Source: Candidatus Obscuribacterales bacterium (GTDB lineage Bacteria > Cyanobacteriota > Vampirovibrionia > Obscuribacterales > Obscuribacteraceae). Taken from it: DNA of 64,000 nt. Of the stretch, positions 20,692 through 39,307 are shown piece by piece. Both the position numbers and the translations under genes were made by a program. The number at the start of each line of letters is the position of its first letter. The first letter of the stretch is position 1. The notes beneath the pieces were generated by a model. The model was not told the origin of the DNA, did no database searches, and worked only from the letters and a program-made list of their open reading frames with translations. The DNA lies in NCBI GenBank assembly GCA_965228855.1, contig CBDDIJ010000005.1, positions 192,001-256,000 on the forward strand, written 5' to 3'.

Positions 20692-20806
20692 AGTTTGAAC
20701 TCCAGACTAAAGGAACTCACTTTGATTATATTTGAAACAATCCGAATCTGTTTGAGCCGAGTTCTCTACACCGCCTCTACAAAATCGTGTCTAAGTTCTG
20801 AAACTA

Positions 20807-20852
20807 TCGGGACGACAGGATTTGAACCTGCGACCTATTGCTCCCAAAGCAA
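20807..20852 (-). repeat. att site: second copy of the tRNA-Pro 3' end
   Basis: 45/46 identical to 57881-57926 (GGATTTGAAC versus GGATTCGAAC). Confidence 0.95.
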
Positions 20853-21345
20853 TGACCGGTGGAGAATCTTCTCAATTCACGGCGGTACTCGGAGGGAACA
20901 GCGCACCACGGAGAGCGTTCGGAAAAGACGGAGAGCCTATTGCGGCCCAGAGCGAATTCGATATTATTCTTCAATCAATACTCGGTCAGCGCGCACTACC
21001 AGTCGATATTGAGGCTTCAGAAACTATGGATGATATAGAGGCAAGGCGCTATCAGAAAGCGTTGCGCGCGATGGAGTTACAGCTTGGTGATGGTTATGAC
21101 CAGTAGAGGAAGGAAATCCGGAGCCCTGTTGAACAAGTTGATACTCATCGACACCACCGATGGTGCTCATCGGACATATTCGTTCTAAAATGACTAAAGT
21201 CAAATGGTTCTATGATTCGTGCAAAAACTCGCGATCTCGTTTGTTAACACGAAACCAAAATCTTTTAACTATTTTGCTGAAAACACCACTAAACCGTCAC
21301 TCGAAAAACCGGTTCACGCAATTGTTGGTCTTGGGTCAAAGATTG

Positions 21346-22032
21346 TTAGGGCCTTGCTTTAATAGAAAAAAGCATAAATTTTTTGTGTACGGGTAGGACA
21401 TTCTTGGGATTATGGAAAGCAATGGCGCCCTTATTTGGATTACTACCAATCCTCAGAATTGCCGTTTCATCGTTGTCCAGATGATGCACGCCGGGTAGAT
21501 AATGGCCGACTATTGGAGGATGCCCACTCATGGTCCTCCAGTGACCAGGTGCACTAACAACAGCAGTGTTTCCGCCCCAGATCACCCGCCAGGTTGGTCC
21601 ATTCGGAGCTGACGCACCTTGTCTATCGAACGCAGCCCATCCCCACGTATTTTGCGAATTATTCACGCCGCCCCAAACGCAAAGCACCATTTGACTTCCA
21701 TTGGCCAATTTCCAGTAGAAGTTCTGATTTGCAGGAAACGACAATTTACCTGTGTGATTGTTCACGAATTCCAAATGTGCCATGTTTTCCAGCTTATTGG
21801 TATCTCCGGTCGCGGGAGCAAATTCGATCACTTCAAACCAATATGGCTTTCCATCTATGTTATATGTGGATTTTGTGTGAAGCGCGATCTTTCCGCTCGC
21901 ACGCATTTGACTTCCAAAAGGAAGAGTTGCGTTGTTATCGCCTAACTCCGCAAGCGCCGGCACTTGCACAAATAACGTCATTGCTAGAACGGAAAAAGAG
22001 ACCGAGATGGAATTTTTCCATGAACTATTCAT
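21346..22032 (-). CDS. secreted hypothetical protein
   Basis: Signal peptide ending PALA; Trp/Gly-rich beta-type sequence. Confidence 0.7.
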   Translation of the reverse strand: MNSSWKNSISVSFSVLAMTLFVQVPALAELGDNNATLPFGSQMRASGKIALHTKSTYNIDGKPYWFEVIEFAPATGDTNKLENMAHLEFVNNHTGKLSFPANQNFYWKLANGSQMVLCVWGGVNNSQNTWGWAAFDRQGASAPNGPTWRVIWGGNTAVVSAPGHWRTMSGHPPIVGHYLPGVHHLDNDETAILRIGSNPNKGAIAFHNPKNVLPVHKKFMLFSIKARP

Positions 22033-22056
22033 TCGATTTACCTCAAAGATAATGAC

Positions 22057-22482
22057 TTATAGAATTCGAATCAGCCAGACCATAGAAAAGTGCGCCGGTC
22101 TGGTCTTTTTTGTGTAGGTGAATTGCGGCGCTGTTGTAGCGGTATACGGCGATGTAACGACGGCGCTGGTGACCTCGAATTCATCTCGATTTCCAAAGAA
22201 GGAGAAACCTGCAGGCATGACGGTGAAATCTGTGATGTCTGTCCTGGGTGTTGTGGGATCCGCTGCTTGACCGAAAATACTTTGTAGAAAGGGAGAGATT
22301 GACAAGTACGGTCTGAGATCCCGATCCGCGCGAACGAACCGCACAGAGCCAATAGAAGGGTCGACTTCGATTACCGGTAAAGAATCAACATTAGCATCAG
22401 CGCTTCGCACCATAATTGGAACGAGACCACCCAGAGGGATTAACGGCCATCCCATGGTTCCAGGGTTGCTGCTATCTGGCAT
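22057..22482 (-). CDS. hypothetical protein with an Ig/IPT-like C-terminal strand pattern
   Basis: GGAG RBS; VVTSPYTATTAPQFTY. Confidence 0.4.
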   Translation of the reverse strand: MPDSSNPGTMGWPLIPLGGLVPIMVRSADANVDSLPVIEVDPSIGSVRFVRADRDLRPYLSISPFLQSIFGQAADPTTPRTDITDFTVMPAGFSFFGNRDEFEVTSAVVTSPYTATTAPQFTYTKKTRPAHFSMVWLIRIL

Positions 22483-22757
22483 TTTGAGTTTCTCCGTAGC
22501 GTCACAGTACTCTTCGGCTTTGGGATTCCTTGAAAATTAGGGAAGCTGGAGATGAATCTCTCTCTCTCCACTCAACCCCAACGAAGTATACCGATCTGAA
22601 CTAGCTGCAGCCGACTTCTAGATGTCATTTACTTCAAATAGGTGATTGGGAGTGACGAAACTCCACGCGGCTCCCACCTTTGATTCCAAACTGCGAACGG
22701 GCTTAGCTGCCGTCGCAATGTGGAATAACCAGAGCACTGCTCTGCGAGACAATCCCT

Positions 22758-24455
22758 ATGAGCGATGATCCGTCCAAGCCCAGAAGAACGGAAGTGCCTG
22801 CTGAAATCGGCGGCACTGACAAGGGTTTGGAAAGCGCTCCAGATGTGCCTGCCGTCAGAAATGCGAGCGTGGACGTCGTTAAGTCTGCTCAACGACTCAA
22901 CCAAGATAACTGGCGCAGTAATGACGGACACTTTGCTATCACAAACGGCGATGAAGTCCTAGCAAGCCAGAATGTTAATGAGTCGAGAAAAGCTCTCATA
23001 GAGAATGTTTCAGAGACTGGAACTCAGCTATCACTCGAAGCCCGAAGCAACCCCGCCCTTGAACCCGTTGCGCTGCTACGGAAGTATGCAGACAAATTGC
23101 CAGAAGGCGAAGAGAAGAGAAGTCTTGTCGAACTCTCCCGGAAGCAAGGTGCTGAGCTTTCACCTTCGATTCGTGAGAGGCTCGAAGGCAGAAGATATGC
23201 CATAGCCAGTAGTGAATTAGATCAAGGTGGAATCCATCACGCGTTGACACCAAATGAGGTGCCACCTGGAGGACTGGGATCTGCATTTCTACACTCAAAA
23301 CCAGAGGTACAGAATGCGCTAATCAAGGCACTTCAAGACTGTCCCGAGATTATGAGTAATCGCTTGGACGTCGCCATCTCGAACGGTGTATATAAAGGAG
23401 TACGAAATTGGACTGACGTGGCCGTCGCGCTTGGATTGACAGTCTGGAGGACTATCGAATTCACCTCCGACGTTATGACGAACAACCCACGTGCCCTGAA
23501 AACTGGCGAGAAAGTTGGCAGCGACATTGGCTCGGCAATAGTTGGGGGAGTGCGAATCTTCGAATTCGCAGACCTGTATTCTCAGAACATTCAGGAGACA
23601 GGGGACTACGAAAAACCGATTCGTGACATCGTCTGGTTAAAAGAACAGCTCAACGCAAAATGGAACCGGATGTCGGAATTTGAGAAGCAGGAATGCATCG
23701 CGGAAAGCACAACAAACCTTGCTCTAGGAGGTCTTCCGACATGGTCTCTCGCAAGGTCATCTCACTTTACCCGTGCAATTGAAGATCTCGGTCAGACAGC
23801 AGCCAAACTTGGTGGTAAGTCTCAGCAAGAGCTTGCAATAGCAATACGGCGCATGATCGATAAGCTTGGTCCGCAAGTCAAAGCGGTGGATGCCGCAACC
23901 GGATTAGAAATCGAAGTTCCTGCTGGCCGGTTTGAAGACCTCTCAATGAGGATGGTCAAACACAAGGGTGACGGAAATGATACTCCGAAGCAGAGAAGGA
24001 GCTACGGTGAGGGCGACGAGATAGTGCGGTCCCCTCACAAGTTTAAGGAGCTTCCTAAGACAGTCGAGGTTCTTCTGCACAATCCCGTCAAATTCGTTTC
24101 GGACAGAATTGACGAACTCAAATCTCAAATTCCAAAGAAAGCGATGGATTTTGGAACAACGATGTCATCAGCAATAGCAAAAGACGCCGACGGTAAATTA
24201 CACGTCTTGGTGAGCACTAATGAGGAAACTGACTATCTCCGCAAGGGAGTGGAGCTTAAACCTTGGGAAAACTTCGTAACCGGAGAAACAGGTGACGCAG
24301 AAATGAGGATAAAACAATTCGCGGAGAATCACGGACTCAAGCTTATTGGAATGGGTGCAACCCGTCCCATATGCGAAGCGTGTGAATCGTGCCTTCGACC
24401 ACTCGGAGTAAAGTTCGCTACAATTCTGAAGTCAGAGGTCAGGAAGAAGCCATGA
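22758..24455 (+). CDS. polymorphic toxin-like protein with a C-terminal deaminase-fold domain
   Basis: Helical N-terminal trunk; C-terminus GDAEMRI...GMGATRPICEAC ([H]AE...PxCxxC pattern); coupled downstream gene. Confidence 0.7.
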   Translation: MSDDPSKPRRTEVPAEIGGTDKGLESAPDVPAVRNASVDVVKSAQRLNQDNWRSNDGHFAITNGDEVLASQNVNESRKALIENVSETGTQLSLEARSNPALEPVALLRKYADKLPEGEEKRSLVELSRKQGAELSPSIRERLEGRRYAIASSELDQGGIHHALTPNEVPPGGLGSAFLHSKPEVQNALIKALQDCPEIMSNRLDVAISNGVYKGVRNWTDVAVALGLTVWRTIEFTSDVMTNNPRALKTGEKVGSDIGSAIVGGVRIFEFADLYSQNIQETGDYEKPIRDIVWLKEQLNAKWNRMSEFEKQECIAESTTNLALGGLPTWSLARSSHFTRAIEDLGQTAAKLGGKSQQELAIAIRRMIDKLGPQVKAVDAATGLEIEVPAGRFEDLSMRMVKHKGDGNDTPKQRRSYGEGDEIVRSPHKFKELPKTVEVLLHNPVKFVSDRIDELKSQIPKKAMDFGTTMSSAIAKDADGKLHVLVSTNEETDYLRKGVELKPWENFVTGETGDAEMRIKQFAENHGLKLIGMGATRPICEACESCLRPLGVKFATILKSEVRKKP

Positions 24456-24892
24456 ATAGACTGGAATCCGTAGCGCCCGAAACAGCTATTGAAGTCGGCC
24501 GTGCTGGTCCTCAAAAGCAAAGACTCGCAGCTATTGAAGCATGCCGACATGCAATTGAGGCAAGCAAAACGAGCGATGAAATCGTCATCCGTGCGTTCGA
24601 TTTACTCTGTCAAGATGGCGTGCTTCCAGCGAAGGTAAGACATGCGCTCGACGATGTAGCAGACGAACTTGATGAAAAATACATGGAGATTTACCAGAAA
24701 ACTCCAGACGCGAGGCACGACTATATTGGCTACTTCAGGCGCGCCAGGACGATCTGCGCAGTCTCCGCTGCCGGCGGCGAGGATCCACATCAAGCTGCGA
24801 TTGATGCAATTTACGAAGCGCGCCAGACGGTTGACGATCAAGACGGTCTCTGCCAGGTCCTATCAGCTTACCTTCGCCGAAAGGCTGACTGA
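24452..24892 (+). CDS. putative immunity protein of the upstream toxin
   Basis: ATGA overlap with the toxin stop; helical 146 aa with LDEKY...YFRRAR...AIYEA. Confidence 0.65.
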   Translation: MNRLESVAPETAIEVGRAGPQKQRLAAIEACRHAIEASKTSDEIVIRAFDLLCQDGVLPAKVRHALDDVADELDEKYMEIYQKTPDARHDYIGYFRRARTICAVSAAGGEDPHQAAIDAIYEARQTVDDQDGLCQVLSAYLRRKAD

Positions 24893-24899
24893 ATTTCGA

Positions 24900-25799
24900 T
24901 TATTCAGAAGGATTATCATTAGTCAGAATGCGTCGCTTCTTAAACGCGCCCATTTTTTCAGTAAATTCCGTTGCGAATGCAACATAGGGATCGGTATTCT
25001 CGATATAAATGGCGTTTACCTGTCCAGGTCCGTAAGAAAGCATTTGACTCTTTAGCTCTCGGCCAATCTGATGTTTTGACCCAGCCCACCTGACGATTCT
25101 CTCGGTAAAGACCTGTTTGGGTAATTGGGCACGCAAATGCAATCCATCCGGAAATACAATATGCGAACTCGCCTCGGAGGACCAAAACTCACTTACACTG
25201 AAAATACTTACGCCTTCGTCCACTAGGCGCTCGGCAGCGCTCACAAACGGCTCTGCTCGCCCTTCGTCAGTCTCTCGATTATGTTCTTCAAACTGCCGAA
25301 GATGTTCCGCTCGCTCATCGGCAGTGCGCACAAAAGTATGCGCCTCGCCCACAAGCACAACTACTTTGGACGGAAGCACGCTCATTATTGTGTCGCACAT
25401 GAATTGTTCGCGTCCGACCTCTGGGCTGTCGGAGTTAGGATCCAAACTGTTGATAAAGAGAAGTTCGCCACCATGTCGGCACCATGTTTTTATTGCCTCT
25501 AACAGCAATTCATCAAAACATTCGAACTGCGAAATCGACTGCTCCCGAAGCTGCTCTTGCAAGTCTACCAAAGGACAATCGCCCCTTACATAACGATCAA
25601 ACGATGTAGTCAGATTCGGTAATAGCTCAAGAGCCAGATACTCAAACCCTTTCCCCCTGAGCAAGGGAAGTAGAGTTAGGACAATTTTTCTAAACTCAGT
25701 CTTAGCTGAATGGGTCTCTCCAAGTAAAACTACGTTTGCGTTTTCCGAGAGAATCTGTTCAACAAGTTGATACTCATCAATGCCACCTTCGGTGCTCAT
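24900..25799 (-). CDS. ChaN/EreA/TIKI-fold hydrolase-like protein
   Basis: VVLLGETH, YLALE, REQFM and KVVVLVGEAH motifs; ATGA-coupled to the ARH gene. Confidence 0.7.
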   Translation of the reverse strand: MSTEGGIDEYQLVEQILSENANVVLLGETHSAKTEFRKIVLTLLPLLRGKGFEYLALELLPNLTTSFDRYVRGDCPLVDLQEQLREQSISQFECFDELLLEAIKTWCRHGGELLFINSLDPNSDSPEVGREQFMCDTIMSVLPSKVVVLVGEAHTFVRTADERAEHLRQFEEHNRETDEGRAEPFVSAAERLVDEGVSIFSVSEFWSSEASSHIVFPDGLHLRAQLPKQVFTERIVRWAGSKHQIGRELKSQMLSYGPGQVNAIYIENTDPYVAFATEFTEKMGAFKKRRILTNDNPSE

Positions 25800-27598
25800 A
25801 TCAAATGCTCCGTCCTTGAGCCGCTGCTCTTTGGAGTCTTCAATCCACGCCTGCGTAAAATCCTTATATTGTATCCATCGAAGTCATCGAACGTGAATGC
25901 TCCTCTCTTGTCGAGCAAATTCTCACGAATATCAATCATGAGACCGAATTTTTGAACTACTCTATAAGCTTTGTGGACATCATCGGTATAAAGACAGAGT
26001 ATTGGTGAAGTCAACGAGCGACGATCTCTTAGTGAGTCAAGCTGCTCTAAGACGAGTGCACCAAAATCGATGGATTCCCTATCCCGACTGACAACCCGAA
26101 ATCCCAGATCTGTGAACAATCTTGCTGAGCGCTCCAGATTTTGCACGAGAAGTGTCACTCGCAAATCCGGTTCTCGTAATGGTCTATCCGGAGCTGTCTC
26201 GTATACCGCGGATTGACGCTGCTCCAGTTGATTGTCCTCGTCTATTTTCAGAGGCAGAGGCTTCGGACTTGCCTTCTTCAGCCTAGTAATGAAGATCGTC
26301 TGCCCGTCTTCAGTTCTTAGTCTACACACAGATCCTTTAACATCTTCTTTGAGCATTTCCACATCTTCGAAAGATTCGACTATGGCAGACCTAGTGTCCG
26401 GAAGTGTGACCTCGCGTTGTTGCGTTGCTGCAAATATTTCACGCCTCAGCGAAGCAAGCGTGACTTGCCGAACTTCTGGAATCGCTTTACGAACTTGTCG
26501 CCGACTAAGGTCTAATGCAATCTGGCGAAGATATGGACGGTCCTGCACAGAATCTAGGCACTCGGTGATCCAATCTGTTCCAAAGACAGCACCAGCAAGT
26601 GATCCGACCATGGCTCCAAGTGTGTCGGTATCTGCATCTTCTAAGAAACAAGCGCGACGAAGACCGGCGTTCGGATTGCCACCACTTTTCGAAACCAAAA
26701 ACAGCGCACCAGCTGTGGTGACGGTGCCCGCGCCAGAACGCTCGCTATCCGAACATCCCAAATGACGAAGAACTTCATTCTCAGTCTGAAGTCCCGATTC
26801 CAATTCGCGTTGAATGTAAGTCAACATTTCCTCCAACTCGTGGACGGTGCTCGTCCATTCATCCAAGTACGAGAGGGTCTTATTTGAATTCGCAGCGTGG
26901 TACCATTCCTCGAACTCAACACACTCTGGTAAGTTTGACCAAACGTCCTTAGCAGCTAGAGTTTGCCTAACTAATTCACCGAACTCTAGTGTCTTCCGTA
27001 GGCGAAGGGCGTACCAACCTGCGTACGCGAAAGCCAGAGCTCCTATCAGCGCCCTCGGATGCCCATGAGTAGTGATGCCATTTCTGAAAACGTCTCTTCC
27101 CAATTCTGCAAAACCATCCGAATCTGCATGCCATACACAGTGTGGAAAGATGCGCATCGCAACGCCATTAGCTCCAGCTTCGAAGTATTTCCGACGGTCT
27201 GATTCGGGTCTATTTAAGGACCAGGGAGGGATATTTAAGCACCATGCTTTAATTGCACTCTTTACGGCTCTTCCGCCGCCTCTCTCGTAAAGACTGAACG
27301 TTGGAAATTCTTGTTTCGTGAGAAACGAAAACCACTCGTCTCCAGTGAACAGACTTCTAGCCGTACTTAGAACGAGCTGTGTGTCGTCGCTGTAGCATCC
27401 AGCACCGATTGATTCTAGATGTGCGTAGCTGTAACCACCAGCTCGACGCCGCCATGCTCGAAATGGTGCCTCCGGTTTATGTGGCAGAAAATTCACAAGC
27501 CCCGAACGATTTTCTTGAGGCCAGCCCAGCGCATCACCGACAGCCCCCCCAACTATGGCGCCTTCCGCTTTCTTTGCTAGGGATAACATCATCGGCAT
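25796..27598 (-). CDS. ADP-ribosylglycohydrolase (ARH/DraG family) fused to a C-terminal VOC/glyoxalase-like domain
   Basis: GGAVGDALG, YSDDTQ, GANGVAMRI, TTH, DADTDTLGAMVGSLAGA; C-terminus VTLLVQNLERSARLFTDLGF...FTFDDFDGYNIRI. ATG 27598 overlaps the DarT stop (TAATG). Confidence 0.9.
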   Translation of the reverse strand: MPMMLSLAKKAEGAIVGGAVGDALGWPQENRSGLVNFLPHKPEAPFRAWRRRAGGYSYAHLESIGAGCYSDDTQLVLSTARSLFTGDEWFSFLTKQEFPTFSLYERGGGRAVKSAIKAWCLNIPPWSLNRPESDRRKYFEAGANGVAMRIFPHCVWHADSDGFAELGRDVFRNGITTHGHPRALIGALAFAYAGWYALRLRKTLEFGELVRQTLAAKDVWSNLPECVEFEEWYHAANSNKTLSYLDEWTSTVHELEEMLTYIQRELESGLQTENEVLRHLGCSDSERSGAGTVTTAGALFLVSKSGGNPNAGLRRACFLEDADTDTLGAMVGSLAGAVFGTDWITECLDSVQDRPYLRQIALDLSRRQVRKAIPEVRQVTLASLRREIFAATQQREVTLPDTRSAIVESFEDVEMLKEDVKGSVCRLRTEDGQTIFITRLKKASPKPLPLKIDEDNQLEQRQSAVYETAPDRPLREPDLRVTLLVQNLERSARLFTDLGFRVVSRDRESIDFGALVLEQLDSLRDRRSLTSPILCLYTDDVHKAYRVVQKFGLMIDIRENLLDKRGAFTFDDFDGYNIRILRRRGLKTPKSSGSRTEHLI

Positions 27599-28287
27599 TA
27601 CGGCGTCCAAGTTGACTCTCGAGGTGCAGAACCATTCCAAATACAGTTTCGGAGTGCGTCCTTGTCGAACATTTCTCCACAAATCACAAATCGAAGGTCT
27701 GTACAGTCTATTTTCGCATACTCAAACCTTACAAGCTGATCTTGTGCATGGGCTTTTGTCGGAAACACGACTCCAGTCAAATCAGTTATTGCAATTTTGT
27801 CTTTAACCATTACTTCACACTGCATGTCGGTTGGGCATGATGAAAGGTGCGTTGCAGAGCGGCTAAAAGAACCAACTCTACTAGCATAAAGACCAGCGAG
27901 TGCAGGCAAGCTGGCAGGTATAAGATTCGCTCCGGAGCCCTTTGCCGCGTTGTGGGGGCAATACAGCGTGTCATTTAGACCCACGTAGTCCGCTCGAATT
28001 AGCAGGATAACCCAATCGCGGAAAAGTAAGTCCTCTTTTTGCTTCTTTAGAAAGTAATGCACATTCGGGTATTGAATAGATGTTGAAATGTGCCCTTTTC
28101 GACCATCCCACCGCTCAATATCAATCTGGGTGAAAAGGGCGCGTTCATCTCTTTCCAGCATCTCTGTTGCGAGTATTCCGATTTTTCCATCGATTAAATG
28201 CATTAAATTGCGCACGGGAGTGAAATGGCACAGTCTTGAAACTCCTTTTCGCTGAACCTCCTTCAGGAGACCTTCATCTAATGTCAT
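27598..28287 (-). CDS. darT: DarT-family (DUF4433) DNA ADP-ribosyltransferase
   Basis: RLCHFTPVRNL, RWDG, ISTSIQYPN, HNAA, PTDMQCEVMVKDKI (catalytic Q-x-E). Confidence 0.85.
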   Translation of the reverse strand: MTLDEGLLKEVQRKGVSRLCHFTPVRNLMHLIDGKIGILATEMLERDERALFTQIDIERWDGRKGHISTSIQYPNVHYFLKKQKEDLLFRDWVILLIRADYVGLNDTLYCPHNAAKGSGANLIPASLPALAGLYASRVGSFSRSATHLSSCPTDMQCEVMVKDKIAITDLTGVVFPTKAHAQDQLVRFEYAKIDCTDLRFVICGEMFDKDALRNCIWNGSAPRESTWTP

Positions 28288-29695
28288 ATTTAAACCTGCT
28301 AACGGTGGAAGAGTCTTTCGGAATTAGCACCGTTCTCTCCTTCGAAAAGGTCATTGTAAGTTCAGTCTTTGCTCGTGTAATTGCAATGTAGAAAAGGCGA
28401 GCATCATGCGCTTCAGCGTCGACCTGACCGAACTGGTTTACGGTACGATCGCTAGGCAAGCGATCTTTTGAGCAATAAGGCATGAACACTGCATCAAATT
28501 CGAGTCCTTGCGACGCTTGATACATACCTACAAAAATTCCATTGCTTTGGACCCAACATGGCATTGTTCGATCAATTTGAGTAAAGCCGCACTTCCGTTG
28601 ACGTAAGCTGCGGACCACAACGTTTACATCATCCTTGGTTCTACACAAGATTGCTACGGTTTTCGAATTGGCATCTGCAATTGCTCGCGAAACGACGTAC
28701 TCTGTTTCGGACGCGTAGTCTCGACAGCGGACGACCCGAGGCTTTGAACCAGCCGCTAAGACATTTTTAGGGGCTACTAAATCAGGCTCGAGGTAGAACG
28801 GCATCAACGCGAGTTCGAGTGCAAACGCGGTAATCTCTGGACTATTTCTATAGTTCTGCTCAAACTTCCAAACGTTTCGCTCCAGAACATCAAGGTTTGC
28901 GGACTTCCAATTTGTTCGGGTTCTAACTCCACGCGTCTGCTGCACAAGGTCGCCAAAGAATGTCAGGCTTCCATCCGCTGGAATTGCTGCAGCCAGTGAA
29001 CGCAACATTTCTGGCGAGAACTGTTGTCCTTCATCGATGACGATGTGGCGGTAGAATCGGGATGTTGAATCATCAGCAAACGCATCTGACACCAGAGTCG
29101 CAATTTCAAGGTAGTCTGTTTCAGTGCGGTAGCGGGTTAACCTTTGTTCTCGATACCTTTCAAGAATCGAGTAGATTTCGCTTCTGAGTGCGGAAGTCAA
29201 TCCTACTTCACGCCCCATTCTATCTGCGTCTAGGTAGTCCTGCTTCGACCGAATTCCATTGTCGACTATCCAGTCAATTTCATCGAGAACAAATTGAGTA
29301 TCAAGTCCTGATAATCTTGAGGTAGTGCGCGTCTTTTTGAAAGTACTGATTAGTGATACTAGAAGCGTCTCGCGTTTGTCATTATCCAACGTCCTGCGTA
29401 CCGGTCTTTTTCGCGAATTTAGATATCCGAAGGCAAATTTGTGGTAGGTGCGAACATCTAAAGGGTTTTTACTTTGTCGCGCGTAGTGATCGAGATACTT
29501 TGTTAAGACATTATTGAATGTGACAAGAAGCGTTCTTCCTGAAGTGGAAGTTCTAGCGTCTGAAAGATATCCCGCTCGAAGTAGTGCCAATAAGGTCTTG
29601 CCGCTACCTGCGGTGCCAAGCACAACACTGTGGCCAAGCGGATAAAGGCTCAGCACATCAATCTGTCGACCTTGAGGTTTGGGTAATCCCTGCAA
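28274..29695 (-). CDS. UvrD/Rep-like superfamily 1 helicase
   Basis: GTAGSGKT, TYHKF, IVIDEGQ, FFGDLVQ, NYRNS, GLEFDAV, FYIAITRAK. Confidence 0.92.
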   Translation of the reverse strand: MQGLPKPQGRQIDVLSLYPLGHSVVLGTAGSGKTLLALLRAGYLSDARTSTSGRTLLVTFNNVLTKYLDHYARQSKNPLDVRTYHKFAFGYLNSRKRPVRRTLDNDKRETLLVSLISTFKKTRTTSRLSGLDTQFVLDEIDWIVDNGIRSKQDYLDADRMGREVGLTSALRSEIYSILERYREQRLTRYRTETDYLEIATLVSDAFADDSTSRFYRHIVIDEGQQFSPEMLRSLAAAIPADGSLTFFGDLVQQTRGVRTRTNWKSANLDVLERNVWKFEQNYRNSPEITAFALELALMPFYLEPDLVAPKNVLAAGSKPRVVRCRDYASETEYVVSRAIADANSKTVAILCRTKDDVNVVVRSLRQRKCGFTQIDRTMPCWVQSNGIFVGMYQASQGLEFDAVFMPYCSKDRLPSDRTVNQFGQVDAEAHDARLFYIAITRAKTELTMTFSKERTVLIPKDSSTVSRFKYDIR

Positions 29696-29808
29696 GTTGC
29701 CACGTACTCTCTGGATTTTGGGTTGAAACAGGTCACAATAACGAGGACATGCTTCGCGGTCAATCCCCCAGAGGGATGATTAGTTTTGAGCGCGTTTCTG
29801 CACTGGTA

Positions 29809-30549
29809 TCAACCAAGGTTGAATTGGATTCCCGCTGGATGCTGATTTGATACCTCCCAGCCGACTGCGTCTCCCTCTCGGTTGAAGGATAGAAACAGAC
29901 CAAAGCGGTAGATCGGAGACTTTACCGGTTCGCTCGATTCGGTAAATAGCAGCAGTTTTGTCCAATCAAGGAGAAGGCAGGCCGCATTGGTGAAATTTAC
30001 CTTCATCTCGATAATGAGTACGTTACGGCAATTACATCCGCGGGTGTGAATCACGACGTCGGGAACGACCCTTCGGTACCTTCCTTGTGAGGTCTCGATT
30101 GCAATGTCTATTCTCGCCCGTTCAAAGTGCTTCGCAGTAACTTTGAACGGAATTTTTCCTCTAAGACTGTTGAGCGATTTCATCATGTAATCTCGTGAGA
30201 GTTGCTTCGTCAAAGAGCCCGCCCGGTTGTACTCACAGTCTACCGACCAGCCGGTGTACTTCAGTTGGTCAAAGAGAATGCGAGCGAATTGATGCGCGAC
30301 CGCACGCTCACCCACTTCGAGGTAGAACAAGTCCTTTTGCTCTTTTAGCTCCAGAACCGTGTCTCGAAGTATAGCGCGAAGCGAGCGTTTGTCGTTTGAC
30401 GTAATGATCTCTTGGTCCAATGTTTGAGGAATATCGGCAAGATTCCTCTTTGTGCAGTTGTCGCAACTAGGCATGGTTTTAATTTTTTCCATTCGGTTGA
30501 AATCCCTATGCTGAAAATCCAATTGTTCTGTTGCGAGACATGAGACCAA
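29809..30549 (-). CDS. PD-(D/E)xK-like putative nuclease (start uncertain)
   Basis: ERAVAH, VDCEYNR, PDVVIHTRG...LIIEMK. Confidence 0.6.
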   Translation of the reverse strand: MVSCLATEQLDFQHRDFNRMEKIKTMPSCDNCTKRNLADIPQTLDQEIITSNDKRSLRAILRDTVLELKEQKDLFYLEVGERAVAHQFARILFDQLKYTGWSVDCEYNRAGSLTKQLSRDYMMKSLNSLRGKIPFKVTAKHFERARIDIAIETSQGRYRRVVPDVVIHTRGCNCRNVLIIEMKVNFTNAACLLLDWTKLLLFTESSEPVKSPIYRFGLFLSFNREGDAVGWEVSNQHPAGIQFNLG

Positions 30550-30594
30550 CAGAATTTGCTCCGATCTCTGATACTTCTGACACCAGATCTGATG

Positions 30595-32379
30595 CTAAAT
30601 ACCATTCGACACTCTTATAAAGCGTACAAGGCGTTCTAACTGCGACTGCAAGTCGAGAATGGATAGATCCGCAGGCGCTTGTGTGACGACACGTGCAATC
30701 GCAACCTTGTCCGCCTGTTTTTTCCCTCCGTCCACTTTCATAGTGAGTGCTCGCTCGAACGGTTTTCCAATATTCGGCAATTCTGTTTCTTCTCCGTGAA
30801 CCTTCCTCGCAGCTGAGTCCAGCAGCTTTGGTTCAATATAGTTTTCGATTTCGCGTCCCGCGGATATCCAAGCGAAACCTGGTCCCCTGTCAAACTCACC
30901 TTGAACACGCAACTTAGTTTCGTTAATTGGTTCGGTAGCACTCGACTTATCACGATCTATCACGATGACACCATAGCTGTTTAACCTCCGAAGCGAAATA
31001 AAGTCACTTACCGGCTCGGTCGATGATAACTCGGCACCTTGTGCATTCTCAATATTGGTCAACTCATTGGCGGTGAAGTGACTCAGTAATTTGCCGCCAT
31101 ATGTCATAACCGAATAGTGCAACCCATAAGTGAGACTTGGGTCTAACGCGTTAAGCCAGTGCCTCAGGTAGATACGATCGCTTGGACCTTCCACCCATAT
31201 AACACAGTTTGCCTGCATCAAATCGGATGGGCGGTGCCCTAGAATTCTGCAGATTGATGACTTCGCCTTTGCGGTGTCTGCATGTTCAACTTCCGAATGA
31301 CCGTTCGAATCAATCCGGACATGAAATACACTGGAGTCAGCGATATCCAGAGCTTGAGATGCGTGGGTAGTTATGAAATATTGGTTGTCCGTTTGCTTGG
31401 ACAGAAACTCTAAGAGCGCACGCAGCAAACCCGGATGCAAATGAATTTCCGGCTCCTCAATACAGACGATGCTCTTTTCCCATTGCGTCACAGCGGACGC
31501 CATTAGAACGACTTGATGGATTCCGCGACCCATATGATCTAGTGGAAGCACCTTGCCGTCCAAGTGAACACTAATCTCAAGCTGATTGCTAGCGATCTCC
31601 AATTGAGCAGAGCCGTTCCCCGTTACGCTCTTCACAAACATATTGATTTGAGAGAACTTTTCCTTTGACTGGCGATACTTCGCTGGATCCTGAAAGGACG
31701 GATTCTGAAGTCCCGCGAGATATTTGATAACCCCCGCGCCGGATGGATTGAACTCACTGGCGGAACTATCAATTCTTCTCAGATCGGGGATGGAGTGAAC
31801 GTTTACACTCGCTTCAATTTCGAATAATCGAATGAAATCTTTTAGAATTGTGGAAATATTACCTTCCGGGTTGTGCCGAACGGAAAACGCACCATTGGTA
31901 ACTGCATGAGCTAGTAGTTCCCAATCGTCATCTGTAAATTGCTGATAAAAGTAGTCCTGCAATTCTTTGACGATTGATTCGTCAAAGCGATTACCCAGGT
32001 AACGAAACCAAATCATCTCCGTCTGCAAGCTGAGTGGCGGACTCTCTATGAATAATTGGAAGTTTCGCAACGTATGCGGATCTCTGATTCTAGCCGCAAT
32101 CGTTTGCAACTTATCCGAAGTTATCCGTACGCCTATCTGTGTTCTTGAAGTGGTATCACCAGTTTGGGGTAGATTAAGACCTGAGACGCTAAAACCAACT
32201 CGGTTCGGTTGTTTCGACTCGCTAGGAAGCGACGTCTCAATGACTTTCAGAATATTTGACTTTCCAGAGTTGTTGGCTCCAATTAAGAAGTTTAATTTCG
32301 ACAGTGGCGCTAGTCGAGCGATGGGCCCACCAAAACTTCGATAACCGCCAAACGCTAATCCTTCAAATCTTATGGACAT
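30595..32379 (-). CDS. OLD-family ATP-dependent nuclease (ABC ATPase + TOPRIM)
   Basis: GANNSGKS, IEEPEIHLHP, FITTH, WVEGPSD, IDRD, REIENY. Confidence 0.9.
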   Translation of the reverse strand: MSIRFEGLAFGGYRSFGGPIARLAPLSKLNFLIGANNSGKSNILKVIETSLPSESKQPNRVGFSVSGLNLPQTGDTTSRTQIGVRITSDKLQTIAARIRDPHTLRNFQLFIESPPLSLQTEMIWFRYLGNRFDESIVKELQDYFYQQFTDDDWELLAHAVTNGAFSVRHNPEGNISTILKDFIRLFEIEASVNVHSIPDLRRIDSSASEFNPSGAGVIKYLAGLQNPSFQDPAKYRQSKEKFSQINMFVKSVTGNGSAQLEIASNQLEISVHLDGKVLPLDHMGRGIHQVVLMASAVTQWEKSIVCIEEPEIHLHPGLLRALLEFLSKQTDNQYFITTHASQALDIADSSVFHVRIDSNGHSEVEHADTAKAKSSICRILGHRPSDLMQANCVIWVEGPSDRIYLRHWLNALDPSLTYGLHYSVMTYGGKLLSHFTANELTNIENAQGAELSSTEPVSDFISLRRLNSYGVIVIDRDKSSATEPINETKLRVQGEFDRGPGFAWISAGREIENYIEPKLLDSAARKVHGEETELPNIGKPFERALTMKVDGGKKQADKVAIARVVTQAPADLSILDLQSQLERLVRFIRVSNGI

Positions 32380-32905
32380 TCCGACCTCGCACTCCTTGCA
32401 AAGCTGTCAACCACAAAATTACTCCGTCTGAATGTTATTCACATTAATGAACGTGCGTCATCTGAAGAGAGATGCAGTTGAACTATCAAAATTCCGGCAG
32501 CAAGACCGAGTGCCACATTTGAGAGAAGCCATTTCGGGGCTAAATGACGTTCGATACACTATTCCATGTGAGTTCAAGCAATTTTTGTGAACTAGATATG
32601 TTGAATCCCTTAGCTGTCTACAGCATTCGGCTGTGGACGCTTGGGCTCACGAACACCGGCAGTTTTCACAGTGGAGCTTTAAGAGAGGCGCTGCAACATT
32701 GGAGACGTAAGCTTTCTGTTTCTGCCGATGCACCGCATCTAGTGTCACGCCGCAAGAGTCGCAGATCTGCAACATAGCGATCTGATAAGTCAACCATCCC
32801 TTGACAATCAGTGATTTAATCTTGGTCCTTTATGGGCGCGCAACTTCGAGCGCTTGACGTCCACGTCATTAATTAGGGAAATCTACTATACTAGGATACA
32901 CTTGT

Positions 32906-33901
32906 ATGGGTACCTGGAAGCGACCAATGCCATTTGACGTTGTGACAAAACTGAGTTTGCCAATTTTAGCGCTCGTGCAATCAGGCATGAGTCGTAGTCA
33001 GATTCACGCGCATATTCCGCTTCTGGAGGGTAAAGCGGTTCAGACACCGCAAGACTTGGTCGAAGCACTCAGATCGCCAGCTGATAGTATTGATGCTTTT
33101 GGCAGTGCTTGGAGCAACTCACTACGTACAGTCGAGCGTTGCGAGAAGCTCGGAGTTAGCATACTGTCTTTGTTCGATTCCAACTTTCCTAACCGGTTGC
33201 GCTCAATCAAGGACAGTCCAGTTTTACTATTTGCTAGAGGCGACGTCAGCGCGCTTCGTGCGCCGATCTCAGCCGCTGTGATAGGGACCCGCGAACCAAC
33301 TGCTTATGGTCAGGGGGCCGCATACAAAATAGCCCGTTATCTCGCGGAGTGCGGTTTGGCAGTGGTTAGTGGGCTCGCTCGAGGATGCGATACGCAGGCT
33401 CACCGTGGCTGTATCGATGGTTTTGGGCAAACAGTCGCGGTACTTGCTCATGGTCTGGACACTGTTTATCCTCCAGAAAACGCGGGTCTTGCTTTTCGGA
33501 TTGTGGAAAGTGGCGGTTGCCTGCTTTCGGAATACGCGCCGGGTGTCAGACCAGGCGGATTTGCTTTCGTAGAACGAGACCGACTTCAGAGTGGTCTTAG
33601 TGACGCAACTATTGTGATTGAGACTGGTGTCAAAGGCGGTACACTCCACACTGCAAATTTCTGCTTGCAACAAGGTCGCATACTTGCAGTGATGGCGCAC
33701 CCGCCGAAACTGCAGAATGCTGAGAAGGCTCAGGGAAATAAGATGCTCATTCAAAAGCGAGGCGCTCTAGCAATCGCGAATCGTGAAGAACTGGAGACTA
33801 AAGTGCTTAGTTTTATGCTGAGCTGCAGAGCTGGCAAAGAAGATCCGGCAGACTGGAAACCTAATAAACAGCTTTCGGTTTTGTTGAAATGTGCGCCTTG
33901 A
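32906..33901 (+). CDS. DprA/Smf-like protein 1
   Basis: AVIGTR, VVSGLARGCDTQAH, AVLAHGLD, LLSEY, ERDRLQSGLS, GGTLHTA. Confidence 0.92.
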   Translation: MGTWKRPMPFDVVTKLSLPILALVQSGMSRSQIHAHIPLLEGKAVQTPQDLVEALRSPADSIDAFGSAWSNSLRTVERCEKLGVSILSLFDSNFPNRLRSIKDSPVLLFARGDVSALRAPISAAVIGTREPTAYGQGAAYKIARYLAECGLAVVSGLARGCDTQAHRGCIDGFGQTVAVLAHGLDTVYPPENAGLAFRIVESGGCLLSEYAPGVRPGGFAFVERDRLQSGLSDATIVIETGVKGGTLHTANFCLQQGRILAVMAHPPKLQNAEKAQGNKMLIQKRGALAIANREELETKVLSFMLSCRAGKEDPADWKPNKQLSVLLKCAP

Positions 33902-34413
33902 AATTTGACGGAATCATTTTTGATCTCGATATGACTTTGGTGGATTCAAGATGCATCGCTCATCATCATGCCCGGTTTCAAAGAACCCACTTCGCAAAGG
34001 CAATCGAGAAAGTCCCGCTGATAGTTGTGTATCCTGGTGTGCGAGAGCTGCTCGCAAGTGCAAGCGCGAAAGGGTTGCCAACGATAATAGTGACTAATTC
34101 AAAAGGCGACTACTGTAACGCGGTTGTTAAGCACCATAGATTGCCGGTCAAGGATAGTATCTGCTTTGGTGATACCGAGAGACGAAAACCGCATCCAGAG
34201 CCAATGCTACTCGCAGCTAAGCGATTGAACATTAGTCCGGATAAGATTGTGGCAATCGGAGATCGCCATTACGACATCGCGGCAGCAAATGAGGCAGGAA
34301 TGATAAGCGTAGCAGCTCTTTGGGCATGCACCGCTCCAGCCAGCGTGAAGGCGGCCAATCCTGCTCATTTGTGCTCAAGCGTAGAAGAGTTTGCGAGGTT
34401 GGTAGGCTTGTGA
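33889..34413 (+). CDS. HAD-IA hydrolase (phosphoglycolate phosphatase-like)
   Basis: IFDLDMTLVDS, IVTN, KPHPEP, IGDRHYDIAAA. Confidence 0.92.
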   Translation: MCALKFDGIIFDLDMTLVDSRCIAHHHARFQRTHFAKAIEKVPLIVVYPGVRELLASASAKGLPTIIVTNSKGDYCNAVVKHHRLPVKDSICFGDTERRKPHPEPMLLAAKRLNISPDKIVAIGDRHYDIAAANEAGMISVAALWACTAPASVKAANPAHLCSSVEEFARLVGL

Positions 34414-34421
34414 GGTGGTAA

Positions 34422-35393
34422 ATGTCTGATACCGCAATCGGTGATCCGAAGGTTCCGTTCTCTACGACTAACATTGTCCACGCGCTCAATTACGCAGTGT
34501 TGTCGCGACTGCTAAACTATTCCGATTCTAGGCTTCATGCGCTACGCCCTCAATGGGACGAGATAATGTTTATGAACCGCCTGATAATTAGACAACCCGA
34601 AGCGGTGATGAGGGAGTTGAGCGTTGAGTTTGTGAAGCTCCAAGAGGCTTACGAGGATGTACTGAGAAGTTTTCGCTCCAGCTCCGCGGAGGAAGTTCAG
34701 GTCCTCACCATTAAGGATCCGCTCTACCCTCAGCATCTTAAGGGGCTACATAGACCGCCGCCCGTATTGTTTCTTCAAGGGCAGCCTAATTTATTTGAAA
34801 AGCGAAGTGTGGCCGTCGTCGGAACGCGCAGCCCTTCGGAGGAAGGAGCCCGCCGAGCTCAGCGGATTTGTATCGAACTCGCGGAGTTCGGATTGAATGT
34901 CGTATCCGGACTGGCAAAAGGGATCGATACATTCTCACATACCGCAACTCTCAAGGCCGGAGGCACGGCAATCGCTGTGATTGGGACGCCACTGGGGCAA
35001 GCTTCGCCGCGGCAGAACTCTGCGCTTCAGGAAATAATCGCGAAGAATCATCTACTAGTCTCACAGTTTGCGCCTGGGCATCCAGTAAAAAAGTGGAACT
35101 TCCCGCTACGCAACAATACTATGGTTGGTTTAAGCGACGCTACGGTTATAGTGGAAGCTAGTACCGAGGGTGGTGGCGCAAAGATTCAGGGTGAATACTG
35201 CCTTAAAGCTGGAAGGAAATTGTTTATCATGAAGAGTTTCGCATCCAGGCAGACGCCTTGGGTTAACAGTTTCATCGAAAGAGGGGCAACCGTACTAGAT
35301 AGCGTAGACGTGCTACTGGGCGAACTTCGGTCAGCGACTCCTCCGACGAGCTCTTCCGGAGGATTTGCATTAGCGGCGAGGAAATCGAATTAG
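34422..35393 (+). CDS. DprA/Smf-like protein 2
   Basis: AVVGTR, VVSGLAKGIDTFSH, AVIGTPL, VSQF, NFPLRN, TVIVEA. Confidence 0.92.
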   Translation: MSDTAIGDPKVPFSTTNIVHALNYAVLSRLLNYSDSRLHALRPQWDEIMFMNRLIIRQPEAVMRELSVEFVKLQEAYEDVLRSFRSSSAEEVQVLTIKDPLYPQHLKGLHRPPPVLFLQGQPNLFEKRSVAVVGTRSPSEEGARRAQRICIELAEFGLNVVSGLAKGIDTFSHTATLKAGGTAIAVIGTPLGQASPRQNSALQEIIAKNHLLVSQFAPGHPVKKWNFPLRNNTMVGLSDATVIVEASTEGGGAKIQGEYCLKAGRKLFIMKSFASRQTPWVNSFIERGATVLDSVDVLLGELRSATPPTSSSGGFALAARKSN

Positions 35394-36703
35394 TGTTCTT
35401 TTCGATCGAGCGAGTGCGAAACGTTTTTGTTTGTGTGCACGACTTTTCGCTACGCAACTCAGTACTAATAGCTGAGATTTCCAGCCGATTCTCCGGCTTC
35501 AATGTAGTTTGGTTATCTCTGGAGTCTGATGATTGGTGGACGGACTGCAAATTGTCCGAGCCGTACACCCCTACATCCAGTATAGAATCAAGCTTGTTTC
35601 AAAACGTCATGCGGCGTGCGATGCGTGAAGAGAATATGAAGCGTTGCGAAACTGTGGTTGTGTCCACGCATCCGAGAGCACTTAGAGCCGCTGTCAAGCT
35701 TTTACTTGGAACGATCTATCTCGATCTTGACAAAAACATCAACAAAACAGATGCTATTGACATCGGAGTCGACTTTCAGGCCTCTTCAGCGGATGACGCA
35801 GCAAGTCAGCTAAGCGGCAGCACAGTTGGGTTCGCTACTGAGTTCTTCGCAAAAACATCTATCAACTATCAGGGAACGCCTTGGCAGGCGACCACAAGGG
35901 GTGGTAGATTGCTTAGCTATGGCTGGTTAGACAATCAAGAGACTAGGACCAAGGAATTCTATGGAGGGCGTTACTTTAGCGACTGCCGCCACGACTTACA
36001 TCCTTTAAGCCTTCGGATTATAGATTCAAAAAAATTCTGGAAAAAACAAATACCGGCCTTCAGAGAGGCCTTCGCTTTCCTGATTAAGTGCGCCACTAGT
36101 GGGAACTATGACCTTATAGCGCATGTCCCTCCTAAACCTGGACAACAAGATCGGTTTAAAGAAATACTACAAGAGATTCACCTAGAAGCAGAATTGAAAG
36201 AGTACGGTGCAACTGCAGCGCAACAGAGAAATGACCTTCTGACTTGTGTGCGCGACTACGGATCTATCAAAAACTTTGCCGCCGTTCAAAGAAAGCAAAT
36301 GGTCCAAGGCGCGTTCGTTGCTTCCGATGCTGTAGCAGGTAAGCGGGTAGTGCTCCTCGATGATGTGCGCACCACAGGTAGCACCACCGGCGAATGCGCG
36401 AAAGTTTTACGTGAGGCGGGCGCCGTTTCTGTCGTCCCGATATGCCTAGCATACAAGCCTTTTCATGATTTAAATTTCGGGATAGAAGATACACCTCCGT
36501 ACAGCAAATGCTGCGACTGGCCGGGCAGCATTCTCGTAACAAAAGGGGGAGAGGTGCTTTATGGTTGCTCCGCGTATCATTCAGGAGATAAAACTTCTCA
36601 CAAATATCAAAATTTCTGTGAAGTTCGAAGAATTATGCTCGAACAATCTGAGGCGGATCTTATGCGCGAGGACGATGAGCTTCGCGCAAACGTACCGTAT
36701 TAG
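35393..36703 (+). CDS. ComF-like phosphoribosyltransferase with a degenerate N-terminal HAD-like region and a C-terminal Zn-ribbon-like tail
   Basis: HVPPKP, KRVVLLDDVRTTGST, LREAGA; tail CCDW...YGCSAY; TAGTG overlap with DprA2. Confidence 0.85.
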   Translation: MFFSIERVRNVFVCVHDFSLRNSVLIAEISSRFSGFNVVWLSLESDDWWTDCKLSEPYTPTSSIESSLFQNVMRRAMREENMKRCETVVVSTHPRALRAAVKLLLGTIYLDLDKNINKTDAIDIGVDFQASSADDAASQLSGSTVGFATEFFAKTSINYQGTPWQATTRGGRLLSYGWLDNQETRTKEFYGGRYFSDCRHDLHPLSLRIIDSKKFWKKQIPAFREAFAFLIKCATSGNYDLIAHVPPKPGQQDRFKEILQEIHLEAELKEYGATAAQQRNDLLTCVRDYGSIKNFAAVQRKQMVQGAFVASDAVAGKRVVLLDDVRTTGSTTGECAKVLREAGAVSVVPICLAYKPFHDLNFGIEDTPPYSKCCDWPGSILVTKGGEVLYGCSAYHSGDKTSHKYQNFCEVRRIMLEQSEADLMREDDELRANVPY

Positions 36704-36953
36704 AGACTCTTTAGTGTGCCTTCAGATGAGAACAGCCCTATCGAGCACTTTTGCTCAAGACCAAGAACTTACAGACGGTCCATTCTCCTAATTTGATGTG
36801 TCACACTTTGCTACGCCTGCGGAAGCAGCGACGCATCACCCTCGACAACGTCCTGCTTGAACTCGAAACCGGGCTATTCACCGATGCCCTTGCAATCTAT
36901 GACAGATACATCATGAAGCTTGCCTTCATCACTCCCAAAGAGGAGTGCTGTGT

Positions 36954-37214
36954 TTAGTGGCGAGATTTGCCAGGCTTTGCATAGAGAGCGCTTAGAAACG
37001 ATGCAATCTCACATCCTTCAAAGTTCGCGGGTTGTCCGTCATTGCGCATCATCAACTCGTCACGAGCTGCTTGCTCCAACGTTGCCTCGTCGCGATTCAG
37101 TGCCTTTATCGCTTTTTCTAAGGACGTCTGAATCAATCTTCTGTTCAAGCTTGGCTGCAAGTCTGATTGCCAGGAATAGAAGACTGAGAGTATTCTTTCT
37201 TCAGCAGCGCTCAT
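36954..37214 (-). pseudogene. N-terminal fragment of a TIR/NDT-like Rossmannoid protein
   Basis: SVFYSWQSDL...NRRLIQTSLEKAIKAL, then the similarity breaks off. Confidence 0.5.
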
Positions 37215-39179: not shown

Positions 39180-39307
39180 CCCCCTCGACTCCTCGGCTGT
39201 CACCAATTGTGATGCCTTCGTCTTTGATTATATTTGAAAGTGCCTGAATCAGATTGAAACCACTTCTCTACATGGTCTCTACAAAATTACGAACCAGCAC
39301 GACAATT

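Follow-up and report, generated by a model that had tools for sequence, protein, structure and literature searches.

The helicase, DarT and ADP-ribosylglycohydrolase (ARH) genes that lie side by side in this stretch of 64,000 nucleotides (the window, meaning the whole of the DNA analysed) are, judged from their sequences, a distant version of the already named anti-phage system DarHTG. The available text of Liu et al. (NAR 2026, PMC13069673) names DarHTG/Liu-DS3, demonstrates phage protection in E. coli, and defines the system by a UvrD-like helicase without domain 2B (DarH), a DarT, and an ADP-ribosylglycohydrolase-like antitoxin (DarG3), which is likened there to ADP-ribosylglycohydrolases of archaea and eukaryotes. 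In the same text, protection by the E. coli system needs the DarT active site and the conserved ATP-binding residues, a DarG3 mutant could not be cloned, DarG3 is reported to be essential, and the frequency of the system in E. coli is given as "<0.5%". Because the system has been published, the locus is not the discovery of a new defense; what is new here is a second DarHTG subfamily, fused to a glyoxalase/VOC domain. We put the probability that the three genes form a DarHTG operon, defending against phage by the scheme of marking, erasing, and helicase action proposed below, at roughly 0.8.

All four genes of the cluster are encoded on the minus strand: darH (28274..29695, TTG start, 473 aa), darT (27598..28287, 229 aa), darG3 (25796..27598, ATG at 27598, 600 aa), and a gene of the Tiki/EreA/ChaN superfamily, hereafter ChaN-like (24900..25799, 299 aa). 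The first-pass annotation had described them as translationally coupled through overlaps of 14 nt, TAATG, and ATGA, and as encoding an SF1 helicase, a DarT with intact H and Q-x-E motifs, an ARH with intact acidic metal motifs, and a ChaN/EreA-fold protein, with no macro or NADAR gene in the window, and each of these readings held up. The helicase matched the Pfam families UvrD_C (E 2e-20) and UvrD-helicase (E 6e-11). DarT scored 31.9 bits against PF14487 (cut-off 22.5), its only significant PDB match was E. coli C7 DarT1 (8baq, E 1.6e-12), and H21 and Q156-x-E158 were present in 70/70 full-length relatives. DarG3 gave 120.6 bits for ADP_ribosyl_GH, and its D22, E29, D71, D72, D323, D325, and T326, the metal ligands among them, each recurred in 70/70 full-length relatives. 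The ChaN-like protein reached 22.4 bits for PF04187, below the cut-off of 27.7, but its fold was supported by Atlas and by Foldseek matches of its model to RRSP, HopBA1, ChaN (2g5g), and EreA-like proteins. No macro or NADAR domain was matched by Pfam among the 30 window proteins scanned; elsewhere in the genome, we found one Macro gene (on C5, ~1 Mb from the operon) and one sub-threshold NADAR match (on C2), while the NADAR-DarT1 family PF22397 had no match in the genome and none in any control genome either. Promoter and terminator scans stayed at chance level (10 versus 9.2 and 9 versus 8.4, respectively).

The cluster sits in an integrative island (20762..57954) whose limits are suggested by a tRNA-Pro duplication at 20762-20852 and the intact tRNA-Pro(tgg) at 57881-57954, with an integrase at 55005-56165; besides the trio, it carries OLD-like ATPase-TOPRIM, PD-Lambda-3 A-like, and ShosTA-like genes. 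The system is patchy and mobile, given this tRNA-Pro island and the fact that 100 related genomes gave no ARH match at E 1e-10. A phage collection likewise yielded no ARH match.

Every DarHTG feature that can be read from sequence was found in the window trio. The genes form a helicase-DarT-antitoxin operon, DarT is a homologue with its active-site residues intact, and the antitoxin is of the ADP-ribosylglycohydrolase fold rather than macro or NADAR. DarH keeps the conserved ATP-binding residues (K33, D221, E222, Q252, R283, E399, and R441), as do 65/65 relatives, and is predicted to lack the 2B domain, because its motif IV to V spacing is 116 aa as against 286 in Rep (119 in the E. coli protein, and 113-121 in 63 of 65 helicase relatives). 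An E. coli operon with the same gene order and similar gene sizes (WP_000699006/WP_000151475/WP_001087212), which we infer to be the published Liu-DS3, was found with the same arrangement in 0.39% of E. coli genomes (21 of 5,426), the published figure being "<0.5%". The window proteins are only 25%, 21% (E 0.018), and 30% (ARH domain only) identical to its products, and profiles built from the window subfamily matched all three in a search of just these three sequences (E 4e-51, 3e-24, and 3e-70). With locus L049 as query, blastn, a weak comparison made at the DNA level only, found no copy of the window subfamily in E. coli. A literature search that was thin on subscription papers found DarHTG or DarG3 named only in PMC13069673, and no paper linking DarT, UvrD, and glyoxalase.

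The arrangement is widely conserved. Scoring 7,999 candidates gave 1,269 ARH relatives for the VOC-fused subfamily (a word-index search with DarT had found only one relative). For the survey of GTDB loci, made through the ARH, 193 relatives were confirmed, and the best 80 of these, which span many phyla, were used. The first-pass annotation had asked for a conserved helicase-darT-ARH neighborhood, and this order, on one strand, recurred in 75 of these best 80 loci; the other five showed no helicase, with a contig end clearly to blame in one only. DarT was present in 77/80 of them by tblastn and in 80/80 by profile, fragments included, and a VOC-ended DarG3 in 58/80. On sequence grounds, the window lies in a second DarHTG subfamily, in which DarG3 mostly carries a glyoxalase/VOC-fold domain at its C-terminus. 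Neither side of the trio has a conserved neighbor: 44 downstream and 45 upstream ORFs fell into clusters of 2-11 loci. Earlier, the genes had been proposed as a distinct three- or four-component system. The three components stand, as do the ARH as cognate antitoxin, the helicase as required partner, and the anti-phage role, to the extent that conservation and the E. coli results in print can show. The distinctness does not, since the trio matches the named and tested DarHTG/Liu-DS3, and neither does the fourth gene, which is taken up below.

The DarT sequence points to a DarT1-like DNA ADP-ribosyltransferase. In a residue mapping made with PMC11543638, H17, F18, T19, D49, R52, and D54 of DarT1 correspond to H21, F22, T23, D56, R59, and D61 of the window protein, and S63, F72, K74, N104, Q150, and E152 to S70, F79, K81, N113, Q156, and E158. 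The DarT1 counterparts of N113, R59, D61, and E158 are essential for guanine modification (PMC11543638), and these four residues were present in 69-70 of 70 relatives. Around the guanine site, R, D, N, E, and K are kept, whereas M71 is replaced by Y78 (Y in 67/70 relatives) and the guanine-contacting Y75 by K82. In the DarT tree, DarHTG DarTs together with four NADAR-paired DarTs split from the macro-paired DarT2 at 100/100, and the window subfamily adjoins the NADAR-paired DarTs at 91/84, a placement that is not strongly supported. From these residues and this grouping, the N2 of guanine is the probable target.

DarG3 begins with an ARH/DraG domain (aa 1-370). Next comes a beta domain made of four strands and a helix (378-442), which a disordered linker connects to a VOC/glyoxalase-fold domain (479-584). 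The AlphaFold2 model of DarG3 (mean pLDDT 87.3) had archaeal MJ1187 and human ARH3 as top Foldseek matches, in keeping with what PMC13069673 says of DarG3, and VIA gave Z 35.1 against 1t5j. The VOC domain, which Pfam detected only as a fragment (E 0.0008), reached Z values of up to 13.0 in VIA alignments with glyoxalase/bleomycin-resistance folds (2qnt, rmsd 3.4, 112 aligned residues); in the scheme proposed below it is an accessory, probably non-catalytic module. The middle beta domain had no usable Atlas match and none among the VIA matches listed, which were filled by the two larger domains.

We propose the following scheme. DarT would ADP-ribosylate guanine in single-stranded DNA, and the ARH-fold DarG3 would likely remove this mark in uninfected cells; during infection, single strands laid bare by the helicase on replicating phage DNA would let marking get ahead of erasing, and phage replication would stall. 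We lean toward DarG3 erasing the mark catalytically, and give roughly even odds to ssDNA supply being the role of the helicase. The same system might instead run on other chemistry, with DarG3 neutralizing DarT by binding, or with DarT modifying an acceptor from which ARHs are known to remove ADP-ribose, such as the phosphate ends of DNA or the side chains of proteins. The available text of PMC11833690 speaks for this, as the ARHs tested there act on phosphate-end ADP-ribose, whereas guanosine ADP-ribose on RNA was left in place by SCO5809 and the human enzymes; NADARs are given there as the only hydrolases able to remove this base modification. The replaced M71 and Y75 point the same way. Against the proposed scheme it also counts that, with thymidine ADP-ribose in DNA, activity of ARH3 was not detectable (PMC12879935). 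However, the near-universal N113, R59, D61, and E158 of DarT weigh against another acceptor, and the invariant metal ligands of the ARH argue for catalysis over pure binding, leaving this alternative unlikely, if worth keeping in mind. The fullest reading is tentative, with the odds somewhat against it: the window would stand for a second subfamily of DarHTG, widespread and undescribed, whose toxin, of the DarT1 type, marks guanine N2, and whose DarG3, with its three domains (ARH, beta, and VOC), erases the mark.

The window copy itself may have an impaired helicase, since three residues invariant in 65/65 relatives are lost (D225Q, Y255R, and K396Q), along with T391M and H393Q at positions conserved in 62 and 61. 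Motif III and V residues of such helicases contact ssDNA, and window Q393 and Q396 align to H560 and K563 of UvrD. With 21 of 122 conserved columns off consensus, the window helicase departs most among 64 sequences (median 3), and contigs of runs X1 and X3 match the assembly, which makes assembly errors unlikely as the source of the substitutions, although these runs may themselves underlie the assembly. It is thus conceivable, if doubtful, that this copy has partly decayed, its helicase binding ATP but having lost its grip on ssDNA, and leaving DarT-DarG3 as an addiction pair on the island. The helicase frame is nonetheless intact and full length, its ATP-site residues are kept, the E. coli helicase likewise lacks the histidine (STMNSAKG), and DarT (off consensus at 7/41 conserved columns) and the ARH (at 10/99) also rank near the top of their sets in divergence, so that a long branch explains part of the divergence. 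Partial decay of this copy is compatible with the mark-and-erase explanation for the family. PADLOC offered another partner for the helicase: GajB models picked it up at E 2e-15 at best, and the OLD-like ATPase-TOPRIM gene upstream (32379-30595) matched GajA (E 7e-19), which would make these two a Gabija system and DarT-ARH a separate pair. This is exceedingly improbable: E. coli DarH matches GajB models equally, the OLD-like gene and the intervening 246-aa gene occur in none of the best 80 of 193 loci, and the window helicase resembles the helicases that precede DarT in 75 loci (33-57% identical over the best segment, mostly ~40%). We rejected the GajB-GajA pairing, since it is DarT and ARH that accompany the relatives of this helicase. 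PADLOC 2.0.0 matched neither DarT nor ARH in the window; it misses the VOC-fused subfamily, and profiles of that subfamily would improve defense annotation.

The ChaN-like gene had been included in the four-component version of the system, in which its ChaN/Tiki-fold product, predicted to be a hydrolase or protease, would regulate or extend DarHTG. Its start overlaps the ARH stop (ATGA), G27-E28-x-H30, E58, and H154 are invariant in its alignment, and its fold is common to the RRSP protease and EreA. Yet neither tblastn nor profile found it in any of the best 80 of 193 DarHTG loci, although 64 of 79 have at least 1 kb of sequence downstream of the ARH. The two close orthologues, in G272 and G130, have integrases or a resolvase as neighbors and no match to DarH, DarT, or ARH within 18-19 kb, and a stub of a second copy, consisting of its first 15 codons (21126..21170, 45 nt, minus strand, 84% identical, with differing upstream sequence), lies 4.6 kb away behind other DNA. 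A word-index search found no relative and a profile-library search 11; a metagenome scan gave one weak locus from 212 pattern matches, without DarHTG genes. Missing from all of these best 80 loci, and with orthologues that neighbor recombinases but no DarT, the gene is no component of the system and likely an unrelated passenger, part of the island cargo; a four-component system is very improbable.

The value of the locus lies in sharpening the questions of substrate base and eraser chemistry, which the available text of PMC13069673 does not address. Since DarT keeps most DarT1 residues of the guanine site and clusters with NADAR-paired DarT1, the mark erased by DarG3 would be base-linked guanine ADP-ribose. 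Among ARH/DraG enzymes, DarG3 would then be the first that reverses a base-linked modification of this kind on DNA. On the tentative fullest reading, it would reuse chemistry of the arginine type on guanine's guanidine-like edge, and the VOC domain would act as a dimerization or small-ligand switch. DarG3 offers a direct and cheap test of the NADAR-only rule for guanosine base ADP-ribose on RNA, as stated in 2025 in the available text of PMC11833690.

Among known systems, the trio is homologous gene for gene to the E. coli DarHTG operon, from which it differs in its low identity (21-30%), its separate branch in the ARH tree (100/99) and the DarT tree, its motif III and V substitutions, the ChaN-like passenger that follows it, and the C-terminal VOC domain of DarG3, which is absent from the three E. 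coli-type DarG3 proteins tested and goes unmentioned in the main text of PMC13069673 as available. With DarTG1 (DarT1-NADAR; Schuller et al. 2023, PMC11543638) it shares a DarT1-like active site, but M71 and Y75 are not kept, the operon has a helicase, and the gene after darT is an ARH, with no NADAR beside it; DarT1-NADAR pairs may have arisen within the second DarHTG subfamily by eraser swap and helicase loss. DarTG2 (DarT2-macrodomain DarG) has the family PF14487 and the order of toxin then ADP-ribose hydrolase in common with the window, but its macro-paired DarTs lie across the 100/100 branch, N113 stands where DarT2 has H119, and the operon holds no macrodomain antitoxin beside a DarT2-clade toxin. 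Last, DarG3 resembles DraG, ARH1, ARH3, and the ART-ARH effector-immunity pairs (6dre and 8za7) in its ARH fold (Z 31-35) and its acidic metal ligands, whereas the substrates of characterized members are ADP-ribosylated proteins or phosphate ends, and DarG3 has two additional domains and a DNA-modifying toxin to which it is tied.

All four reading frames described in the first-pass annotation were confirmed on the sequence, with the coordinates and overlaps (three) given there: a helicase gene (darH, 29695-28274), darT (28287-27598), an ADP-ribosylglycohydrolase (ARH) gene (darG3, 27598-25796) and a ChaN-like gene (25799-24900, 299 aa), all on the - strand. Pfam assigned a UvrD-type helicase to the first gene and matched DarT at 31.9 bits (cut-off 22.5) and the ARH protein as an ADP-ribosylglycohydrolase at 120.6 bits; the fourth gene scored under the ChaN cut-off, and its placement in the Tiki/EreA/ChaN superfamily came from Atlas and a fold search with its model. 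Modelled with AlphaFold2 (mean pLDDT 87.3), the ARH protein has MJ1187 and ARH3 as its best structural matches and displays three domains: an ARH domain (residues 1-370), a middle domain of a helix and four strands (378-442) and, past a disordered linker, a VOC (glyoxalase/bleomycin-resistance) fold (479-584; Z 13.0, rmsd 3.4, 112 aligned).

A GTDB genome scan with a 44-sequence ARH alignment gave 257 pattern matches and 193 confirmed relatives, of which the best 80 loci were kept (two of these, L060 and L061, belong to a single genome). The helicase-darT-ARH order, whose conservation across genomes had been proposed as a check, was found by tblastn in 75 of these best 80 of 193, always on one strand; DarT preceded ARH in 77/80, and a profile detected DarT or a fragment of it in all 80. 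In three loci (L023, L027 and L042), DarG3 was accompanied by DarT remnants only, with no helicase although at least 4.7 kb of upstream sequence was present, and in L024 a single ORF covers the helicase and part of DarT; we read these four as decayed copies that retained the antitoxin.

The trio is a real and well-conserved operon that the first-pass annotation had read correctly, but the system has already been named: passages of Liu et al. (NAR 2026, PMC13069673) describe Liu-DS3 DarHTG, composed of DarH, a UvrD-like helicase without domain 2B, DarT, and the antitoxin DarG3, which is similar to ADP-ribosylglycohydrolases of archaea and eukaryotes. According to these passages, DarHTG in E. 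coli has an abortive-like phenotype and is active against T4, T5, T7 and SSL_2009a, protection is lost when either the active site of DarT or conserved residues that bind ATP are mutated, no DarG3 mutant could be constructed, and the system occurs in "less than 0.5%" of E. coli. A Salmonella plasmid match to the window's ARH led to an E. coli operon (helicase 465 aa, DarT 221 aa, ARH 561 aa) present in 21/5,426 genomes (0.39%), which we infer, short of proof, to be Liu-DS3 or its kin. Pairwise identity between the window's and the E. coli proteins is 25% for the helicase, 21% for DarT and 30% for ARH, and profiles built from the window's relatives match the E. coli proteins at E 4e-51, 3e-24 and 3e-70, respectively. 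The window's helicase is predicted to lack domain 2B because its span from motif IV to V is short, at 116 residues versus 286 in Rep by our count; the span is 119 in the E. coli protein and 113-121 in 63/65 helicase relatives. As far as sequence can test them, the trio displays all DarHTG features. The window's operon is a distant member of DarHTG. PADLOC 2.0.0 holds no model that matches its DarT or ARH.

The claim of a four-gene system, by contrast, fails. By tblastn and family profile, the ChaN-like gene was found in 0/80 DarHTG loci (best 80 of 193 relatives), with at least 1 kb of sequence past the ARH stop in 64/79. The representative library contains 11 relatives of it, and 16/400 genomes of the class match at E 1e-12; all 16 belong to the same family as the window, and two of the matches are close. 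Both of these close orthologues adjoin integrases or a resolvase, and the surrounding 18-19 kb contains no match to DarH, DarT or ARH. A second copy is represented by a 45-nt stub (21170-21126, - strand; first 15 codons, 84% identical), which begins exactly at the ATG, behind different DNA, ~270 nt from a tRNA-Pro duplication. The ChaN-like gene is likely lineage-specific mobile cargo, and its overlap with the ARH stop incidental.

The operon lies in an interval bounded by that duplication (20762-20852) and the intact tRNA-Pro gene (57881-57954); an integrase gene and further defence-like genes share this interval. A further partial duplication lies at 14401-14447 and integrase genes at 15263, 18022 and 55005; tandem islands at one tRNA-Pro are likely. 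A search of 100 related genomes gave no match to the ARH at E 1e-10. Immediately upstream of darH, an OLD-like ATPase-TOPRIM gene (GajA/AriA-like) is followed by a PD-Lambda-3 A-like gene (32379-29809, - strand), neither of them found in the 80 DarHTG loci. A DprA-HAD-DprA-phosphoribosyltransferase cluster (32906-36703, + strand), in which both DprA genes match ShosA (E 1e-69) and the phosphoribosyltransferase weakly matches ShosT/PsyrT, is read as a ShosTA-like system that has a HAD gene and a pair of antitoxin-like genes. Two overlapping genes of 565 aa and 167 aa (22758-24892, + strand), neither with a Pfam match, may form a polymorphic toxin-immunity pair, as suggested by a deaminase-like motif (DAEMR ... 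PICEAC, by eye) ending the former. At 47094-53891 is an RHS gene that includes a C39 peptidase.

Since DarT1 is inactive on dsDNA in passages of PMC11543638, and ATP-binding residues are needed in the published system, the helicase would feed ssDNA to DarT. The window's helicase retains its ATP-site residues, yet carries Q, R and Q at D225, Y255 and K396 (invariant in 65/65 relatives), M at T391 and Q at H393 (kept in 62 and 61), and deviates in 21/122 conserved columns, the most of 64 sequences; its DarT and ARH likewise rank with the most divergent sequences in their sets. Contigs from sequencing runs X1 and X3, which may be the assembly's source, are identical to the stretch, and run X4 spans positions 225 and 255, not motif V. 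The window's copy may be impaired, with a probability that we put well below even.

Among solved structures, only E. coli C7 DarT1 matches the window's DarT significantly (E 1.6e-12). Using passages of PMC11543638 and a counted one-residue offset between chain and paper numbering, the DarT1 residues that are indispensable for modifying guanine correspond to R59, D61, N113 and E158, each kept in 69-70/70 relatives, whereas M71 and the guanine contact Y75 are replaced by Y78 and K82. Toxins of DarHTG share one side of a 100/100 branch with four that are paired with NADAR, and macro-paired DarT2 lies across it; the window's subfamily is nearer the NADAR-paired toxins at 91/84 only, in a tree where long branches meet. 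From this mapping and grouping, guanine N2 is the predicted target. The ARH ligands D22, E29, D71, D72, D323, D325 and T326 are present in 70/70 relatives, which argues for catalytic erasure by DarG3. By chemical inference, guanine N2 would be held in a guanidine-like group, comparable to arginine for DraG and ARH1. This is opposed by passages of PMC11833690, in which SCO5809 and human ARHs fail to reverse guanosine ADP-ribose on RNA, and of PMC12879935, in which ARH3 shows no activity on ADP-ribosylated thymidine in DNA. No DarT-ARG pairing occurs in passages of PMC9503650 (first 12 of 21 places). We predict DarG3 to be an ARH-type eraser of guanine-linked ADP-ribose.

Within DarG3, the VOC domain scores at least 20 bits in 58/80 loci and the middle domain does so in 68/80 (best 80 of 193 relatives). 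The VOC domain is accessory, as it is missing in 22/80. Its first strand lacks a histidine (K there in 27/43), and the last-strand glutamate, kept in 34/43, is R in the window; judged by the ligand positions of glyoxalases, the domain reads as probably non-catalytic.

Other DarT arrangements were also observed. In a third arrangement, on a Nostoc sp. C052 plasmid (NZ_CP040275.1; L144:1-4820), a large AAA-domain gene, a 531-aa DarT carrying a long N-terminal extension, and an ARH directly precede BREX pglZ and brxL, with no DarH-type helicase match in that stretch. Five Cyanobacteriota-phylum DarT genes (L123, L126, L127, L128, L129) encode ~390-400 aa; in L123 and L126, the two that were scanned, a single protein combines DarT with part of a Macro domain. 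DarT domains also lie in ~1,950-aa open frames in four genomes of the phylum (G594:C94, G612:C69, G571:C42, G528:C88).

The relatives' hosts (Cyanobacteriota, Thermodesulfobacteriota, Bacteroidota, Bacillota, Actinomycetota and others) overlap the phyla richest in DarHTG in passages of PMC13069673, so the paper's count may already include the window's subfamily. The words glyoxalase and VOC are absent from the main text of that paper, and our literature search returned no paper joining DarT, UvrD and glyoxalase. In trees of 51 DarT and 26 ARH sequences (24 DarT picks from the 80 loci, 23 past the length filter, and 21 ARH picks), the window's subfamily branches apart from DarHTG of the E. coli, Cereibacter and Streptomyces type (100/99 in the ARH tree; the DarT tree separates them as well), and 0/3 DarG3 of the E. 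coli type carry the VOC domain present in the window's DarG3. Compared with known DarHTG, the points of remaining interest are this VOC-fused subfamily and the predicted erasure of guanine-linked ADP-ribose by DarG3.
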